A stretch of DNA of 64,000 bases from an uncultured Clostridia bacterium (GTDB taxonomy: Bacteria > Bacillota > Clostridia > HGM11327). Made by a program: the position numbers and the translations under genes. The notes under the pieces are model-generated. The model saw nothing but the letters and a program-made list of their open reading frames with translations. It ran no database searches and had not been told where the DNA came from. The stretch is from the NCBI GenBank assembly GCA_945918795.1, contig CAMEIT010000002.1:42-64041 (forward strand), read 5' to 3'. This document shows positions 3,275 to 19,489 of this stretch, piece by piece (the stretch's first letter is position 1; each line of letters starts with the position of its first letter).

Positions 3275-4092
3275 TGGACATAATAAGCAGTAAGAAATTT
3301 AATTATATTGTTTGCCCGAAATGCAGAAAAAAGCTGTCCGTTTCGGGCAATACGCTTAAGTGCGCCGACGGACATTCATTTGATATTGCGTCATGCGGAT
3401 ATGTAAATCTGCTTCCTCCGCATAAAACAGGCGATGTGCCCGGTGACAGCAAGGAAATGGTAAGGGCAAGACGCGATTTTTTGTCAAAGGGCTACTATAA
3501 GCCTCTTGCAGATAAATTATACGAAATAATAAAAGGCTACAAGCCCGAGATAATTGCGGATATAGGCTGCGGAGAAGGATATTATACATCGGGAATGGGT
3601 GCTTTCGGTGCTCACGTAATGGGCTTTGACATATCAAAGTATGCGCTTATGTATGCCGCAAAACGCGACAAGGCGTCTGATTACTGCACGGCAAATCTGC
3701 ACGATATTCCTCTTGCTGACAATACGGCTGATATGGCGGTATGCTGTTTTTGCGCGCATGACGAGCACGAATTTGCACGCATATTGAAAGAAAACGGAAA
3801 GCTCATAACGGTGCTTCCCGCAAAACGTCATTTGTTCGGCTTGAAAGAGATTCTTTACGATAAGCCTTACGAAAATACGGAAGAAAATGAGGCAATGGAA
3901 TACTTTTGCCTCGTTGAAGAGGACAGGGTAGAGTATACGGTTGATATAGACTGCACTGACGATATAATGAATCTGTTTTCCATGACGCCGTATTTCTGGA
4001 AAACGTCCAAAGACGGAGTTGACAGACTGAAAGCGATGTCTCATCTGAATACGGAGCTCGGTTTTGTGATAAGGACGTACGTCAAGCGCTGA
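3274..4092 (+). CDS. rRNA (guanine-N1)-methyltransferase RlmA/RrmA-like, with a zinc ribbon and a class I SAM-MTase domain
   Basis: N-terminal CPKCRKK...LKCADGH Cys4 zinc ribbon followed by the SAM-binding motif IADIGCGEGYYT. TAATG stop/start overlap with the upstream gene. Confidence 0.55.
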   Translation: MDIISSKKFNYIVCPKCRKKLSVSGNTLKCADGHSFDIASCGYVNLLPPHKTGDVPGDSKEMVRARRDFLSKGYYKPLADKLYEIIKGYKPEIIADIGCGEGYYTSGMGAFGAHVMGFDISKYALMYAAKRDKASDYCTANLHDIPLADNTADMAVCCFCAHDEHEFARILKENGKLITVLPAKRHLFGLKEILYDKPYENTEENEAMEYFCLVEEDRVEYTVDIDCTDDIMNLFSMTPYFWKTSKDGVDRLKAMSHLNTELGFVIRTYVKR

Positions 4093-5828: not shown

Positions 5829-6266
5829 ATGGCGGAATTGTGTTATATCACTATTGATGAAGCAATAAAGATTCATCAACAAACTGTTGAACATAGTGGC
5901 GGAGGAGCTTTAGGCCATTTTGATTTGGGCAAATTGGAAAGCGTTTTGGAAAATATTCAAAATGATGATTATTATTTAACCTTTGTCGATAAAATAACAC
6001 ATTTATTCTTTTGCACGTGTAAATTTCATTGCTTTGAGGACGGAAACAAACGTCTTGCCATCACGTTATCGGCACAATTTTTATTGAAAAACGGATACCT
6101 GCTCGTTGCACAATCTTTTTTAAGGGAAATGGAGAATATCAGTTATCATGTTGCCGCAGGAAAGATCAGCAAAGAACTGTTACATGACATATTGGATTCG
6201 ATTTTGAAGGGACAATTTGAAAATGATGAAGAACTGAAATTAAGGATCATTAATGCCATTATGTAA
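5829..6266 (+). CDS. doc: Doc/Fic family toxin (death-on-curing)
   Basis: Contains the Fic/Doc active-site motif HCFEDGNKRLA (HxFx(D/E)GNKR). 146 aa. AAGGAG 10 nt upstream of the ATG. Confidence 0.75.
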   Translation: MAELCYITIDEAIKIHQQTVEHSGGGALGHFDLGKLESVLENIQNDDYYLTFVDKITHLFFCTCKFHCFEDGNKRLAITLSAQFLLKNGYLLVAQSFLREMENISYHVAAGKISKELLHDILDSILKGQFENDEELKLRIINAIM

Positions 6267-6392
6267 TAATAAAACCAACCATTATTGATTTTCAAGGATG
6301 GTTTTATTGAAACATAAATCTCGATTGTTGTTTTTTAAGGAAGATTTATGTTATAATATGTTCGATAGCTTATTTACCGAAATATAATATAA

Positions 6393-15017: not shown

Positions 15018-16091
15018 TTACGGTCTGTTATTTGCAGTGACGGCTTTGAGCTTGTCAAGTAAAGCCGCAAAGCGGCTGTTGCCCTCAAGCTGCGAGCCGT
15101 ATTTTCTTATGATCTCATTCAGGAGCACTTCGGACTCGGTCTCGGAATAATTCTTTGTGCTTCCGTTTATGTCGTCGAAAACCTTATTTACCATAAGTGC
15201 CGTGTAATTTGATGATATGCGTGTATCTGCCTTGACAGAATGTTCGGCGGCATTTTCAAGAGAGGCAAGCATACCGTCAAAATCGCCGAGTGCGTGATAG
15301 CTTTCTGCCATTTGACTGTATATGCCGGCAACTCTGCAATGGAAAAATCCCAAATTGCCGTCTTTATAAAGCAAATTATAACAATCGAGTGCAAATTGCA
15401 ATGCTTCAATAGTCTCTGCGGGTGTAAATTTTCCTTTTGTGAGCATTATGGTTGTATTAAGCCATATACTGTCAACGAGATTTTGAATATTTCTCTGACA
15501 GTAATTGACTGCTTCATCTCCTTCAAGCAGGTGCGGCATAAGCTGCCCTTCGGTAATGTAACCTGCCGTTTTTGCATATTTTTTTGCGGCTTCGGCATCG
15601 TTTTTACAATAATAATGTGTAAAGCACAGTATCTGAACAGCGCCGCATCTGAGCGTGTTATCCGTTGATTCTTCAAGAATACGTTTGCCGTATTCTATTA
15701 TCTCATCGGCGTATTCAACTGCGTTGTCAATGTTCAGGGCATACATTAATTTGTGGATAACGGATAAGTCGTTCGGGAACTCATGCTTTGCTTTGCGCCA
15801 CAGTTCAACGGCTTCTTTCGTTTTGCCGGCATTGAGCAGGCGTTGATTTGTTTCATCGTATTCATCCAGCTTTTTCTTCTTTTGAATTTCACCGACTCCG
15901 AGCAGGTCGTCAATGCTTATGCCGTAGTAAGATGCAATAGCAGGCAAAAGTGTGATGTCGGGGTACCCCTCACCACGCTCCCACTTGGAAACGGCTTGTA
16001 CTGTGACTCCCAAATGGCTTGCCAGATCCTCTTGTGTATTTCCTTTTTCTTTACGCAGATTTTTTAATTGCTCGTTTAAGAGTATATTCAT
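15018..16091 (-). CDS. XRE-family HTH transcriptional regulator with a C-terminal TPR-like domain (RNPP/Rgg-like architecture)
   Basis: N-terminal HTH_3 ([32 protein letters not shown]) followed by ~290 aa of helical TPR-like repeats. GGAGGA RBS. Confidence 0.7.
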
Positions 16092-16254
16092 AGTATTCCT
16101 CCGAAAACAATATTACAAGCGCTTGTTCTGAATATATTATATCAAATGAAATTGATTAATACAATGACTGCTCTGTTAAATTGCAGTTTAATTATTAAAC
16201 GAATAGTTTAATTGAAGGGGAACAGGCTGCTCATATGCAGTCCGATGCTTTGGC

Positions 16255-16299
16255 GTAATGTTACACAAGGAAAACTTAAATCAAAAATACGCAAACACC
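16255..16299 (+). repeat. Direct repeat copy A (~46 bp), upstream of the transposase gene
   Basis: GTAATGTTACACAAGGAAAACTTAAATCAAAAATACGCAAACACC is nearly identical to 17928-17973 (1 substitution, 1 indel). Confidence 0.8.
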
Positions 16300-16406
16300 G
16301 AAACTTTTTTATGCTGTCTTTTACGGAGAATTTGCAATCACAAAAATATCGGCAGAGAGACTGTTTTCCTCTGCCGATTTGTGTTATAATGATATGGATG
16401 ATGAAA

Positions 16407-16925
16407 ATGGATAAAGGAAAAGAATTGCCGCAAAGGAAGCATCCTCGTCTTGTCAATTATGATTATGGTTCTGCCGGTGCATATTTTATAACGATATGTA
16501 CGCAAAACAGAAGGTGTGTTTTATCTCGTATCGTAGGGCGGGGGCTTGCTCCCGCCGAAGCAAGAGGTATGGAATACACCTCATTTGGAAAGATTGCAGA
16601 GCAACAGCTGTTATTACTTGAAGAACGATATGAATATTTATCGGTTGACAAATATGTAATTATGCCAAACCACATCCATGTTGTTTTGATTTTAGAGAGC
16701 GAAGCGGCGGGAGCAAGCCCCCGCCCTACAATCACAGACATTGTTTGTGCATATAAATCGTTGACAACGAGAGAATGTAAGAATAACGGATTTGACGGAA
16801 AATTGTTTCAAACTTCATTTTATGAGCATATAATCCGAGGCAGAGAGGATTATGAAGAAATCGTGAAATACATTTACGAAAACCCGATTTGTTGGTACTA
16901 TGACGAATTATATACAGAAGGATAG
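16407..16925 (+). CDS. tnpA: IS200/IS605-family (HuH Y1) transposase TnpA-like protein
   Basis: HuH motif MPNHIHVVL, a conserved Tyr-containing C-terminus, and an N-terminus typical of Y1 transposases (AGAYFITICTQNRRCVL). The upstream extension to 16212 lacks an RBS. Confidence 0.7.
   Translation: MDKGKELPQRKHPRLVNYDYGSAGAYFITICTQNRRCVLSRIVGRGLAPAEARGMEYTSFGKIAEQQLLLLEERYEYLSVDKYVIMPNHIHVVLILESEAAGASPRPTITDIVCAYKSLTTRECKNNGFDGKLFQTSFYEHIIRGREDYEEIVKYIYENPICWYYDELYTEG
16533..16729 (+). repeat. Perfect 25-bp GC-rich inverted repeat (arms 16533-16557 and 16705-16729) embedded in the transposase coding sequence
   Basis: GTAGGGCGGGGGCTTGCTCCCGCCG is the exact reverse complement of CGGCGGGAGCAAGCCCCCGCCCTAC. 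The 147-bp spacer encodes the HuH motif. Confidence 0.9.
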
Positions 16926-16995
16926 GAGCATGGGCTTTGCTTGAAACCGGCAAAACAGAGAGATAAATAAGAATTTGGAGAGGTGGGAATGGGAT

Positions 16996-17760
16996 ATGAG
17001 TGAATGGTTTTCAGTTGAAGAAATTGATTCCCAAACATTTGCAATTAACGAATATAAACACTGGGAAGAAACACACTGCTATCTGTTATGTGGTCAGGTA
17101 AGTGCAGTCCTAATTGATACCGGGTTGGGCGTTTCCAATATTAGAAAAATTGTAGACAGCTTAACGGAGTTGCCAGTTATGACGATTACAACTCATATTC
17201 ACTGGGATCACATCGGCGGGCATAAGTATTTTGATAATATCGCTGTACATGAAAATGAAAAGGATTGGCTATCAGTCAAGTTTCCTATACCGCTGCAAGT
17301 TGTTAAGAATAATCTGACGAAGGTTCCTTGTGATTTTCCGGCAGAGTTTGATATTGATGCTTATCAGATTTTTCAAGGTGAGCCGCAAAGGATTCTGCAC
17401 GATGGCGATTGGTTGGATTTAGGCGGACGGGAAATTCAGGTTATCCATACTCCGGGACATTCTCCCGGACACTGTTGTTTTTACGAGCCGGGACGAGAAT
17501 ACCTGTATTCCGGTGATCTGATTTACAAGGGATGCCTTTATGCCTTTTACCCAACCACTGATCCACAGCTTTTCTATCAATCTGTAAAACGGGTGCAGAA
17601 ATATAAAATAGCAAAGGTTCTACCCGGTCATCATGATGTGGACATTCCTGTATCGTTGATAAACGAAATTGAAGCAGGATTTGCACAATTGGAGAGAAAT
17701 GGACAGCTCAAACAAGAAAGCGGACTGTTTGAGTTCGGAAATTTCCAAATTCAAATCTGA
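16996..17760 (+). CDS. MBL-fold metallo-hydrolase
   Basis: THIHWDHIGG (HxHxDH) metal-binding motif. ~254 aa. Confidence 0.7.
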   Translation: MSEWFSVEEIDSQTFAINEYKHWEETHCYLLCGQVSAVLIDTGLGVSNIRKIVDSLTELPVMTITTHIHWDHIGGHKYFDNIAVHENEKDWLSVKFPIPLQVVKNNLTKVPCDFPAEFDIDAYQIFQGEPQRILHDGDWLDLGGREIQVIHTPGHSPGHCCFYEPGREYLYSGDLIYKGCLYAFYPTTDPQLFYQSVKRVQKYKIAKVLPGHHDVDIPVSLINEIEAGFAQLERNGQLKQESGLFEFGNFQIQI

Positions 17761-17927
17761 ATAACAAATTCCGCTTTATCAAGCAGAAAGCCCCGGCATA
17801 TAATGAATAATCTGCCGGGGTTCTATTTGTTTACTGCGGAGCAAAAAAACTCACCTATTTATGAGGACGAATCGTTTGATGATTTCCTAGACAAGAACAT
17901 CACGCTTTCACATTCGGGATTTTTTGT

Positions 17928-17973
17928 TGTAATGTTACACAAGGAAAACTTAAATCAAAAATATGCAAAACAC
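17928..17973 (+). repeat. Direct repeat copy B (~46 bp), downstream of the MBL hydrolase gene
   Basis: See copy A at 16255-16299. Confidence 0.8.
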
Positions 17974-18055
17974 CTCTTCACAATTCACTCTTACTTATTA
18001 CCCGGAATCCCGAATGTGAATTTAGTGAAAAGTGAACAGTGAACAGTGAAAAAGT

Positions 18056-18089
18056 AAAAATCCCGAACGCTTTTGCATTCGGGATTTTT
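18056..18089. terminator. Bidirectional rho-independent terminator
   Basis: AAAAATCCCGAAcgcttttgcaTTCGGGATTTTT. The stem is flanked by A-run and T-run, between convergent genes. Confidence 0.7.
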
Positions 18090-18156
18090 GAGTTTCCCCA
18101 ACAATTTCGAACCTTTGCTTACAAGATAGAATATTCTCTTCCAAGCGATCAAAAGC

Positions 18157-18948
18157 CTACCCTTCTACTATCGGCACCCAATAAACCCCAAGATCATCAT
18201 CGTTTTCTTGGTTTATAGGCGTTTGGTAAGAAATCATAACCGAATAGGTGTTATCCAGTCGATAATTTGTTTGCGGAAACCATTCTTTCGTGATTTGATT
18301 GAACGTCTTTTGCCTTGCATCGGCTCGTGAACTTCCCTTACAAACAAATACAGCCCAGGTCGCCGCAGGAAAATAATAAAGTTCAAAACCATCCAAATGC
18401 TCGGAATCACTTGACATATCACGATACAATCCACCACACTTTTGTTTTGTCGAGATCATTCTCAGCTGATTCTCATTCAAATCAGTTTCGCTCCAATAGG
18501 TTAATCGATCTGCCTCAACTTTGAGTAATACCTCAAATCCCGGCTGCTTTTCAATTCTGTAATCCATAATATAGCCTCCTCCTAAAATAAATTGAAGTCG
18601 TAACGGTGCAAAGGCTTTTAACGTACAACCGCCACGCCGAACTGCAGAAGGAGTAACACCGTGAAAACGCGAGAAGGCTTTGGTAAAGCTATCGTGAGAA
18701 TCATAACCATACATCAGAGCAATATCGATGATTTTTTCATTTGAAGAAAGGAGCTCCATTCCCGCCTCCGCCAATCTCCGATTCCGAATATATTCACTTA
18801 CGGGAAAACCGCACAGCATGGAAAATGCTTTTTGAAAATATCCGGAAGACATATAAACATGCGACGCGACATCCTCAATTGAAAAATCATCCTTCAAATG
18901 CGATTCCATATAATCGATCGCTTCTTCAATGCTTTCTAACCAATTCAT
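18157..18948 (-). CDS. AraC-family transcriptional regulator with a GyrI-like effector-binding domain
   Basis: N-terminal AraC HTH (DVASHVYMSSGYFQKAFSMLCGFPVSEYIRNRRL) and a C-terminal GyrI-like domain. AGGAGGTG RBS. Confidence 0.7.
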   Translation of the reverse strand: MNWLESIEEAIDYMESHLKDDFSIEDVASHVYMSSGYFQKAFSMLCGFPVSEYIRNRRLAEAGMELLSSNEKIIDIALMYGYDSHDSFTKAFSRFHGVTPSAVRRGGCTLKAFAPLRLQFILGGGYIMDYRIEKQPGFEVLLKVEADRLTYWSETDLNENQLRMISTKQKCGGLYRDMSSDSEHLDGFELYYFPAATWAVFVCKGSSRADARQKTFNQITKEWFPQTNYRLDNTYSVMISYQTPINQENDDDLGVYWVPIVEG

Positions 18949-19165
18949 TGCTTTCACCTCCTGTGCTCTTATTTTAGCACACCTATATAATGTATTTCTC
19001 GTCATTTTGTGAAATGATTTGTCCAATACACCTTATCACATCAAAAAAATTATACCATAAGAACAATATAAACTCAATATGCCCCCATAAAGTCGCAGGT
19101 TCAAGTCCAAAAGGTTCAAGAAAAGGTGCAATGGTGAAAGGGGGTTGTTTTTTACCCCTAAAAAC

Positions 19166-19200
19166 ACGAAAAGTCCTTGAAAATCAAGGACTTTTCGTGT
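19166..19200. terminator. Strong bidirectional terminator hairpin, distal to the tRNA cluster
   Basis: CACGAAAAGTCCTTGAaaaTCAAGGACTTTTCGTG is a 16-bp perfect stem, with further small hairpins on each side. Confidence 0.65.
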
Positions 19201-19226
19201 TAGGGTGCAAAATTGTTGCACCATTT

Positions 19227-19302
19227 TGGAGCCGGTTATGGGACTCGAACCCGCAACCTGCTGATTACAAATCAGCTGCTCTACCAATTGAGCTAAGCCG
19301 GC
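19227..19302 (-). tRNA. tRNA-Thr (UGU)
   Basis: Cloverleaf with anticodon loop TTTGTAA; CCA is encoded. Two A-C mismatches, in the acceptor stem and the T stem. Confidence 0.8.
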
Positions 19303-19328
19303 AAGATAAATTATGTGTAACCGAAAAC

Positions 19329-19405
19329 TGGCGACCCGGATGAGGCTCGAACTCACGACCTCCAGCGTGACAGGCTGGCGTTCTAACCAACTGAACTACC
19401 GGGCC
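19329..19405 (-). tRNA. tRNA-Asp (GUC)
   Basis: Anticodon loop CTGTCAC, T-loop TTCGAGC, CCA encoded. Confidence 0.85.
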
Positions 19406-19413
19406 AGGAGTTT

Positions 19414-19489
19414 TGGTGACCCATCGCAGACTCGAACTGCGGACACCTTGATTAAAAGTCAAGTGCTCTACCGCCTGAGCTAATGGGTC
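19414..19489 (-). tRNA. tRNA-Lys (UUU)
   Basis: Anticodon loop CTTTTAA, acceptor GACCCAT/ATGGGTC, CCA encoded. Confidence 0.85.

Follow-up and report, generated by a model that had tools for sequence, protein, structure and literature searches.

Do the two long direct repeats that bracket a transposase gene and a hydrolase gene in a clostridial genome mark the ends of a mobile element, or were they left beside one? The question is raised by a locus in a 64,000-nucleotide stretch of contig CAMEIT010000002.1 (assembly GCA_945918795.1, an uncultured Clostridia bacterium), referred to here as the window, with positions counted from its first letter. The two genes encode a Y1-HUH protein resembling the REP-associated tyrosine transposases (RAYT; REP, repetitive extragenic palindrome) and a metallo-beta-lactamase (MBL)-fold hydrolase. 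A sequence-only reading of the window had noted that the repeats flank these genes and had suggested an uncharacterised mobile unit, REP-like sequences or a duplicated regulatory site. Comparison with related loci indicates that the mobile unit is a cassette of ~1.6 kb, at ~16305-17910, and that the repeats, hereafter the 46-mers, lie outside it. We give roughly even credence to the view that the 46-mers are a locus-specific duplication of host intergenic DNA, made by an insertion-linked event beside the mobile cassette.

The repeat itself is plain. A repeat search of the window pairs 16244-16295 with 17918-17969 (52 nt, 90%), and within this pair a well-matched core of 45 nt (16255-16299) and 46 nt (17929-17974) agrees at 44 positions, the differences being one C/T mismatch and one extra A (a single indel); in the 11 nt 5' of the cores identity is only 7/11. 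The exact 35-mer GTAATGTTACACAAGGAAAACTTAAATCAAAAATA is found in the window only at 16255 and 17929, with 3 mismatches allowed, against a chance expectation of 0 in 100 shuffles. The copies start 1674 nt apart, copy 1 ending 108 nt before the RAYT start (16407) and copy 2 beginning 169 nt after the MBL stop (17760), so the spacings given earlier (1.67 kb, ~110 nt and ~170 nt) hold.

16255-16299, + strand: 46-mer copy 1, a piece of host intergenic DNA immediately to the left of the cassette; similarity continues, more weakly (7/11), to 16244.
17929-17974, + strand: 46-mer copy 2, located by the repeat search and by reading of the sequence.

Apart from these two copies, we encountered the 46-mer nowhere but at the same locus in the same species. 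Among 94 fetched loci the 35-mer occurs only in same-species copies of the window locus (L001-L010 and L014); a 24-mer from the repeat has no match in the GTDB species representatives, and the JGI metagenomes yielded a single bare 24-nt chance match inside an unrelated open reading frame (ORF; L095). In a search of the window against Rfam only tRNAs reach the gathering threshold, with two sub-threshold chance matches in 16000-18300. Confined in this way to the window locus, the 46-mer cannot be counted as a generic repeat, as a REP or as a known RNA. The suggestion that it might be REP-like also fails on structure: it has no GTAG-tagged palindrome, its internal palindrome is of 4-5 bp only, and folds that include it form no strong local hairpin; hairpins of REP type sit instead within the RAYT ORF. 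The 46-mer is not part of a tRNA or of any gene, and between its copies there is no integrase or recombinase gene, only the RAYT and MBL genes. Seven strains show no single-nucleotide polymorphism (SNP) in copy 1 and one, at 17967, in copy 2.

The boundaries of the cassette follow from loci that share only part of the window arrangement. The exact MBL protein is encoded on >22 contigs, which align to the window at 98-99% identity and fall into several structural variants. One of these (L003) has the left side in common with the window, including copy 1, and diverges at ~17903-17910; another (L005) has the right side in common, including copy 2, and diverges left of 16320. Both breakpoints lie at the inner side of the 46-mers, and each variant carries one copy only. 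A 92%-identical RAYT paralog (P0017, locus L011), on a different contig of the assembly that holds L002 (GCA_964318515.1), aligns to window 16306-16968 joined straight to 17753-17911, that is, to a cassette without the MBL gene and without the 46-mer. Three further loci (L099, L100 and L104) align to 16304-16985 and 17765-17908; where the window has its MBL gene, they have a TfoX_N-like ORF. On the right, homology to L011, to L099 and to L003b, the second tail of L003, stops at 17908-17911, and relatives of the cassette in other gut Clostridia support the same ends. Because homology to L011 and L099/L100/L104 and the L003 and L005 breakpoints all stop inside the 46-mers, we place the ends at ~16305 and ~17910, in agreement with L012 and L019. 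A gap of 5-6 nt (GAAAC) separates the cassette from copy 1, and one of 18 nt (CATTCGGGATTTTTTGTT) separates it from copy 2.

The cassette is present in multiple copies. L002 and L011 lie on separate contigs of GCA_964318515.1, two copies 89% identical to each other (L036 and L037) occur in the metagenome-assembled genome (MAG) SIG592, and the same-species contigs L003 (7213-7358) and L005 (5209-5415) contain further copies or tails. These extra tails and copies imply a species with at least 3-4 recombining cassette copies, assembly chimeras being possible; L003 and L005 themselves look like recombinants between cassette copies, or possibly chimeras assembled across the repeat. Of the tails in L003/L005, one is inverted and lies next to AraC(cupin)/GFO_IDH genes, and another is a frameshifted RAYT gene downstream of a malic enzyme gene. 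Matches on plasmids and phages were limited to distant homologs (<=38% identity) in 5 plasmid records and 1 phage record. The existence of copies elsewhere bears out the earlier proposal of an uncharacterised mobile unit built on a RAYT-type gene with the MBL gene as passenger. The 46-mers do not travel with it: 80 other RAYT loci, as well as L011 and L099, lack the repeats, and the search for further 46-mer copies turned up no association with other tnpA homologs and no scattering over many loci.

Read against these relatives, the window cassette has the following parts.

16305-16330, + strand: left end, about 8 terminal nt followed by the inverted-repeat core GCTGTCTTTTACGGAGAA (16313-16330); family consensus GTTGTCCTTAACGGAGAA.
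16348-16378, + strand: left hairpin, ATCGGCAGAG..CTCTGCCGAT followed by TTTGTG; DNA fold -10.4 kcal/mol, z -6.7.
16380-16391, + strand: extended -10 promoter-like sequence TGTGTTATAATG, read from the sequence and conserved in relatives.
16960-16968, + strand: left arm of the passenger-slot hairpin, GAGATAAAT; its partner CTTTATC is at 17774-17780 and the loop TCCG at 17770-17773.
16969-17769, + strand: passenger module, beginning AAGAATTT and ending CAAAT; it holds the MBL coding sequence (16996-17760, 254 aa).
17787-17824, + strand: terminator-like hairpin CCCCGGCA..TGCCGGGG; DNA fold -10.9 kcal/mol, z -3.6.
17883-17910, + strand: right end (TTTCCTAGACAAGAACATCACGCTTTCA; ..AAGAACATCACGCTTTCA), a degenerate inverted copy of the left core.

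The left hairpin is kept, with changes in its stem, in L005, L011, L012, L019, L024, L026 and L029, and could serve as a read-through block or as a recognition hairpin; the terminator-like hairpin is conserved in L011, L012, L013 and L099, and the two have a CGGCAGA/TCTGCCG core in common. In L011, L036, L037 and L099, all paralogs, the right end plainly repeats the left core in inverted orientation. By its position and conservation, TGTGTTATAATG is a candidate promoter of a RAYT-passenger operon.

Between the RAYT gene and the passenger runs a conserved stretch, ..AAAACAGAGCGATAAAT, that leads into a slot for exchangeable genes. In L011 the slot is empty and forms a perfect hairpin, CGATAAAT-TCCG-ATTTATCG (L011 5553-5572). 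Filled cassettes retain both arms, with a compensatory change in L099 (CGGTAAAT/ATTTACCG), and in the window the passenger is followed by ..CAAAT-TCCG-ATTTATCG. Every passenger compared (in the window, L099, L015, L019 and L012) begins AAGAATTT and ends CAAAT, and on the conserved backbone the passenger varies from the MBL gene in the window to a TfoX-like ORF, other small ORFs or none. The identification of the hydrolase as an MBL-fold protein is confirmed (Lactamase_B, 6e-23). No MBL gene is found near the RAYT gene in any of the other RAYT loci (0/80), which rules out the MBL protein as a regular RAYT partner. A 92%-identical MBL protein (P0243) is encoded in L105, between TruB and a sigma-F-type operon, without RAYT gene or 46-mer; there, nucleotide homology to the window (L105 4968-5782) is limited to 16963-17777 (91% over 815 nt) and ends in similar short inverted sequences. 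The absence of MBL genes from other RAYT loci and the presence of an MBL gene without RAYT in L105 therefore mark it as exchangeable cargo rather than machinery. A separate observation concerns L103 (~935-2501), which has the same RAYT as L099: its slot hairpin is broken after GCGGTAAA and an IS110-family transposase gene follows, so that a second mobile element appears to target the slot hairpin there.

The enzyme that would move the cassette is the RAYT-like protein, whose gene also contains the REP-type sequences of the locus.

16407-16925, + strand: RAYT-like Y1-HUH gene, 172 aa; alternative start at 16401.
16530-16557, + strand: REP arm 1, an intragenic REP-type hairpin made of GTAGGG and a GC-rich palindrome; encodes VGRGLAPAE, the loop after strand 1.
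16705-16732, - strand: REP arm 2, the second intragenic hairpin, inverted relative to arm 1 and 147 nt from it; encodes AAGASPRPT, the loop after the HUH strand.

The HUH motif (HIH, aa 89-91) and the tyrosine of YIYENP are invariant in 32 homologs. Family models recognize the protein only in part: Pfam Y1_Tnp (PF01797) gives E=0.0018 and 18.8 bits, below its cut-off of 23; NCBIfam NF047646 (REP_Tyr_transpos) gives E=3.3e-16 and 59.5 bits, short of its cut-off of 80, and matches only aa 77-161; the IS200/IS605 model NF033573 gives E=0.1. A phmmer search of the Protein Data Bank finds the TnpA_REP structure 4er8 (7.8e-5), and the core of an AlphaFold2 model has 4er8_A as its best fold match (E 6e-7, TM 0.58-0.60), followed by the ISDra2, IS200 and IS608 TnpA proteins. 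The earlier name, HuH transposase, holds insofar as this is a Y1-HUH protein; its class is refined to RAYT-like, nearest in fold to TnpA_REP (4ER8).

The two REP arms form a 28-nt inverted repeat, 96% complementary, in which each arm has the REP signature of GTAGGG followed by a GC-rich palindrome. A REP pair stands at the same positions in 55/84 homologous genes, down to ~33% protein identity; its sequence differs by clade and the arms remain complementary. Over 20 variable positions and 31 distinct arm types, complementarity is 17.4/20 within a gene vs 9.1/20 between genes. The encoded peptides (aa 42-51 and 100-108) coincide with the two low-confidence loops of the AlphaFold2 model. No REP-type copies are found outside the RAYT ORF within the window. 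Flanking REPs do occur in relatives (L023, L025, L035, L038, L043, L076, L081, L085 and L089): five of these loci (L023, L025, L035, L038 and L043) have both the intragenic pair and flanking hairpins, and in several more distant relatives no pair is detected in the gene, which is flanked by hairpins of this type, the arrangement of classical REPtrons. As to the role of the intragenic pair, our guess is that the enzyme uses it in cis on single-stranded DNA, or that it serves autoregulation. In a limited search of the RAYT, REP, REPtron and TIRtron literature we met with no account of REP pairs that co-vary within a RAYT ORF, which is not proof of novelty.

In some homologs a 26-aa (78-nt) unit beginning with the segment of REP arm 2 has also been duplicated in frame and is repeated in tandem 2-4 times (P0002, P0004, P0016, P0019, P0021, P0022, P0027, P0033, P0080 and P0118; also P0006, P0062 and P0116), and some duplicate the arm 1 segment instead; REP-adjacent direct duplication is therefore recurrent in the family. 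Seven SNPs clustered around arm 2, at 16697-16745, set the window apart from the other strains; they appear to match the paralog L011, which suggests gene conversion between cassette copies.

Where the cassette inserts is seen most clearly in its relatives. At five independent insertions, the 16 nt to the left of the element and the 16 nt abutting its right end are reverse complements of each other, with agreement of 16/16 in L012, 14/16 in L019, 15/16 in L036, 15/16 in L037 and 12/16 in L099. The left side has an A-tract and the right side a T-tract; the arms are of unrelated sequence from one insertion to the next, and no direct repeats surround any of the five. L036 and L037, in one MAG, each sit between a different arm pair, and in L012 the inverted-repeat pair amounts to 47 nt. 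The simplest reading is that canonical copies insert into the loop of intrinsic terminator hairpins, whose intact form would be, for example, AAAAAAGGATTGCACGA-N3-8-TCGTGCAATCCTTTTTT. Flanks are also exchanged between copies: the right flank of L003b (TGTCTGCGGCTTTT) is the pairing partner of the L011 left arm (AAAAAGCCGCATACA). At the window locus the corresponding arms stand as follows.

17911-17925, + strand: right flank CATTCGGGATTTTTT, a terminator right arm that matches the right arm of the intact terminator at 18056-18089.
18006-18020, + strand: AATCCCGAATGTGAA, a perfect 15/15 complement of the cassette right flank, displaced beyond 46-mer copy 2.
18056-18089, no strand assigned: intact bidirectional intrinsic terminator, z -6.0; a paralog of the flanking arms that holds no cassette.

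The right flank of the window cassette, CA(CA)TTCGGGATTTTTT, is a terminator arm, and its perfect partner follows copy 2 and a 32-nt spacer rather than standing left of the element. On the left the flank consists of copy 1 and GAAAC (..CACCGAAAC), complementary to the right flank at only 8/10 positions. In this the window copy departs from the canonical form, with the pairing arm found 84 nt farther to the right, past copy 2. An attenuator reading of the four similar arms was dropped because no + strand gene follows the terminator. In strains of the L004 type, the terminator at 18056-18089 directly abuts tRNA-Thr.

How, then, did the 46-mer come to stand on both sides? Since the cassette ends inside the repeats and the repeat is absent from its paralogs, the 46-mers are host intergenic DNA, and the order of events and the mechanism of duplication that we infer are these. 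The cassette would first have sat in the local terminator, between two arms, the ancestral canonical site having it between AATCCCGAATG and CATTCGGGATT. It would then have been re-inserted or re-copied ~100 bp upstream, carrying 18 nt of the right arm with it, and template switching, or fill-in or repair of a staggered break, would have re-copied ~46 bp of the target. The empty site with a single 46-mer should accordingly read GATGCTTTGGC, 46-mer, TCTTCACAATTC, and the 46-mers would have no role in transposition. At the return junction GATGCTTTGGC and GATTTTTTGTT agree at 7/11 positions, a homeology that fits a microhomology-guided switch. Long duplications of unique sequence recur around genes of the RAYT family, and 78-nt duplications in tandem occur beside the intragenic REP, both of which favor a duplication linked to insertion. 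In L029 a 61-nt duplication (98%; 1071-1131 / 1731-1791) repeats the final 61 nt of the ORF upstream, stop codon included, and the copies flank a minimal unit of hairpin, promoter and RAYT gene; in L088 a duplication of 93-116 nt (2847-2961 / 3656-3771) lies in the 3' part of an ORF that, from its translation, is probably methyltransferase-like; and a pair in L013 (4863-4900 / 6238-6275) resembles a RAYT gene fragment.

Several points weigh against this reconstruction. Neither an empty site nor the ancestral arrangement turned up; searching for an empty site through the neighboring XRE-TPR regulator gave only the same locus for the exact and 99% variants, the next homologs being ~60% identical and non-syntenic. 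No HUH/Y1 element is known to duplicate its target (Nunvar 2010, PMC2817692), and a duplication of 46 bp has no established mechanism here. Such repeats are seen at only 3-4 of ~75 loci, and L029 and L088 are not full cassettes of the window type. The left and right ends of the window cassette itself have no significant complementarity, their cores being visible by family comparison only, and the split-terminator view draws on flank complementarity, the one unoccupied site observed being the paralogous terminator at 18056-18089. Moreover, a three-step history of ordinary events (tandem duplication, canonical insertion and a deletion of ~50-90 nt, the size varying with where the unit is delimited) fits equally well.

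That history, which we consider possible though on the doubtful side, supposes that tandem units of 46-mer, spacer and terminator existed beforehand, that the cassette inserted canonically in the loop of the first terminator, and that a microhomology deletion afterwards took out the first spacer together with most of the left arm, so that CACC|GAAAC was left; the 46-mers would then flank the cassette by position only. It accords with the entry of canonical copies between terminator-like arms without duplication, and with the 8/10 complementarity of left and right flank, which a left-arm remnant would have. The locus moreover has four paralogous arms (17911-17925, 18006-18020, 18056-18070 and 18075-18089), which shows that DNA has been duplicated here without involvement of the cassette. 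None of the three steps is out of the ordinary; three are nevertheless needed, the cassette-free tandem arrangement is seen in no contig, and the duplications of unique sequence at the L029 and L088 RAYT genes are left unexplained. An origin in function is unlikely. The 46-mer could be a site kept twice, as an operator for the adjacent XRE-TPR regulator or as the promoter or 5' end of a small structured transcript (17971-18093), given the palindrome TGTAA-TG-TTACA at its 5' end, the strongly structured region ending in an intrinsic terminator that copy 2 precedes (RNA fold z -4.35), the TTGTAA, 17-nt spacer and TTAAAT that can be read across copy 2, and the single SNP in the two copies taken together among seven strains. 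However, a consensus promoter scan calls no promoter within the 46-mer, Rfam has no match, copy 1 lacks the TTG of the putative -35, and diversity among the strains is too low for conservation to carry weight; the site has no homolog elsewhere, and its exact bracketing of the cassette would be a coincidence. Least credible of all, and in our view very improbable, is that the 46-mers are functional boundaries, whether attL/attR sites, REP-like RAYT substrates or element termini. Direct repeats do bracket the RAYT and MBL segment closely, but the segment has no integrase, the repeats have no GTAG palindrome or stable hairpin and are not repeated elsewhere, cassette paralogs and orthologs lack the 46-mer, homology stops inside it, and L003 and L005 have one copy each. 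As a related check, 17970-18060 was considered as a left-end remnant of a second tandem cassette and rejected, local alignments to seven left ends being no better than shuffles.

The 46-bp repeat is itself a minor local scar; taken with L029 and L088, it gives a hint that long duplications can accompany insertions close to RAYT genes. The cassette family underneath is the more interesting result, and it resembles several known systems without coinciding with any of them. REPtrons, in which a tnpA_REP/RAYT gene is flanked by REPs (Nunvar 2010, PMC2817692; Ton-Hoang 2012, PMC3333891; Corneloup 2021, PMC8266576), share with the window protein the Y1-HUH fold, with 4ER8 as best match; the window hairpins are likewise GTAG-tagged GC-rich palindromes, and more distant relatives are flanked by REPs of the same kind. 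In the window, however, the REP pair is inside the ORF, not beside the gene, with no other copy in the 64 kb, and the gene is multi-copy with conserved ends at different loci and carries a passenger. By the account in PMC8266576, RAYT/TnpA_REP genes are domesticated, immobile and present in single copy; it reports no evidence that they move and treats the mode of REP spreading as unresolved. The window RAYT is neither single-copy nor, by its copies, immobile, and it lacks the inverted flanking REPs.

The nearest described architecture is that of the TIRtrons or TIRYTs of Di Nocera 2013 (PMC3733652), RAYT-like genes flanked by long inverted repeats. The likeness is that of a RAYT-like gene bracketed by REP-unrelated inverted repeats, such as the 47-nt pair of L012; here, by comparison, the inverted repeat is composed of a conserved inner core, the element end, and variable outer A/T-tract arms that resemble host terminators. 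Long bracketing repeats of this kind are clear in L012, L019, L036, L037 and L099; between the ends of the window copy, complementarity is not significant. A passenger slot and an intragenic REP pair are not mentioned for TIRtrons in the passages of PMC3733652 consulted.

Members of the IS200/IS605 family (IS608, ISDra2 and IS200) are likewise small and have a Y1-HUH transposase, hairpins near both ends and, as in the canonical copies here, no target duplication. The window protein, on the other hand, is nearer to TnpA_REP than to TnpA_IS200, and the cassette has a passenger gene, no tnpB and inverted end cores. Insertion 3' of a conserved tetra- or pentanucleotide without duplication, the rule for that family, is not what we see: the left flanks are variable hairpin arms with no common short junction motif, and the window copy has a 46-bp flanking repeat. 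The sequence-only reading had set the unit apart from IS200/IS605 elements for ending in long direct repeats rather than subterminal hairpins; since hairpins near both cassette ends (16348-16378 and 17787-17824) and family-level inverted end cores are present, that contrast lapses. Intragenic REPs and Rickettsia palindromic elements (Di Nocera 2013) are similar in being in-frame palindromes that code for loop residues, the differences being that the host gene here is the RAYT gene itself and that the pair is inverted, fixed in position and co-varying to ~33% identity. Intragenic REPs in general, and REPs overlapping the ends of RAYT genes, are noted in PMC3733652. An att-type integrative element would bring an integrase or recombinase and a repeat derived from its target gene; only the RAYT and MBL genes lie between the 46-mers, which belong to no tRNA or other gene. 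Overall, the comparisons suggest that the cassette works like a small hairpin-guided Y1-HUH element.

We propose, tentatively, that gut Clostridia (Oscillospirales-type MAGs) carry an autonomous RAYT transposon family characterized by insertion in terminator loops, a hairpin slot for the exchange of passengers and a REP pair (REPIN) inside the transposase ORF. This RAYT lineage is unlike described RAYTs in being multi-copy, with defined ends, a recognizable hairpin-type target and cargo. If the proposal is true, the intragenic REPIN may act in cis in autoregulation or in copy-in replication, and the flanking duplications of 46-116 bp and the tandem duplications of 78 nt could be footprints of RAYT-driven, hairpin-primed DNA synthesis. 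With a length of ~0.8-1.6 kb, the cassette would also offer a compact natural system in which to study RAYT-hairpin recognition, target choice and cargo capture.

The surroundings of the cassette include an XRE-HTH and TPR regulator gene (15018-16091, - strand), an AraC/GyrI-like gene (18157-19026, - strand) and genes for tRNA-Thr, tRNA-Asp and tRNA-Lys (19227-19489, - strand). L004, L006, L008 and L009 lack 18093-19222, which includes the AraC/GyrI-like gene, and have the junction GGGATTTT|GGAGCCGG; the gene thus forms an insert of 1.13 kb that separates the terminator (18056-18089) from the tRNA-Thr 3' end. Homology to L001 ends at the same point (19223) and is followed by genes for a large serine recombinase and PemK, which suggests an integration hot spot next to tRNA-Thr. 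Finally, the strongly structured + strand region 17971-18093 (RNA fold z -4.35; no Rfam match) may be a small RNA: in a long imperfect hairpin 17975-18003 pairs with four AGTGAAM heptamers in tandem (18024-18051), and the intrinsic terminator comes next.

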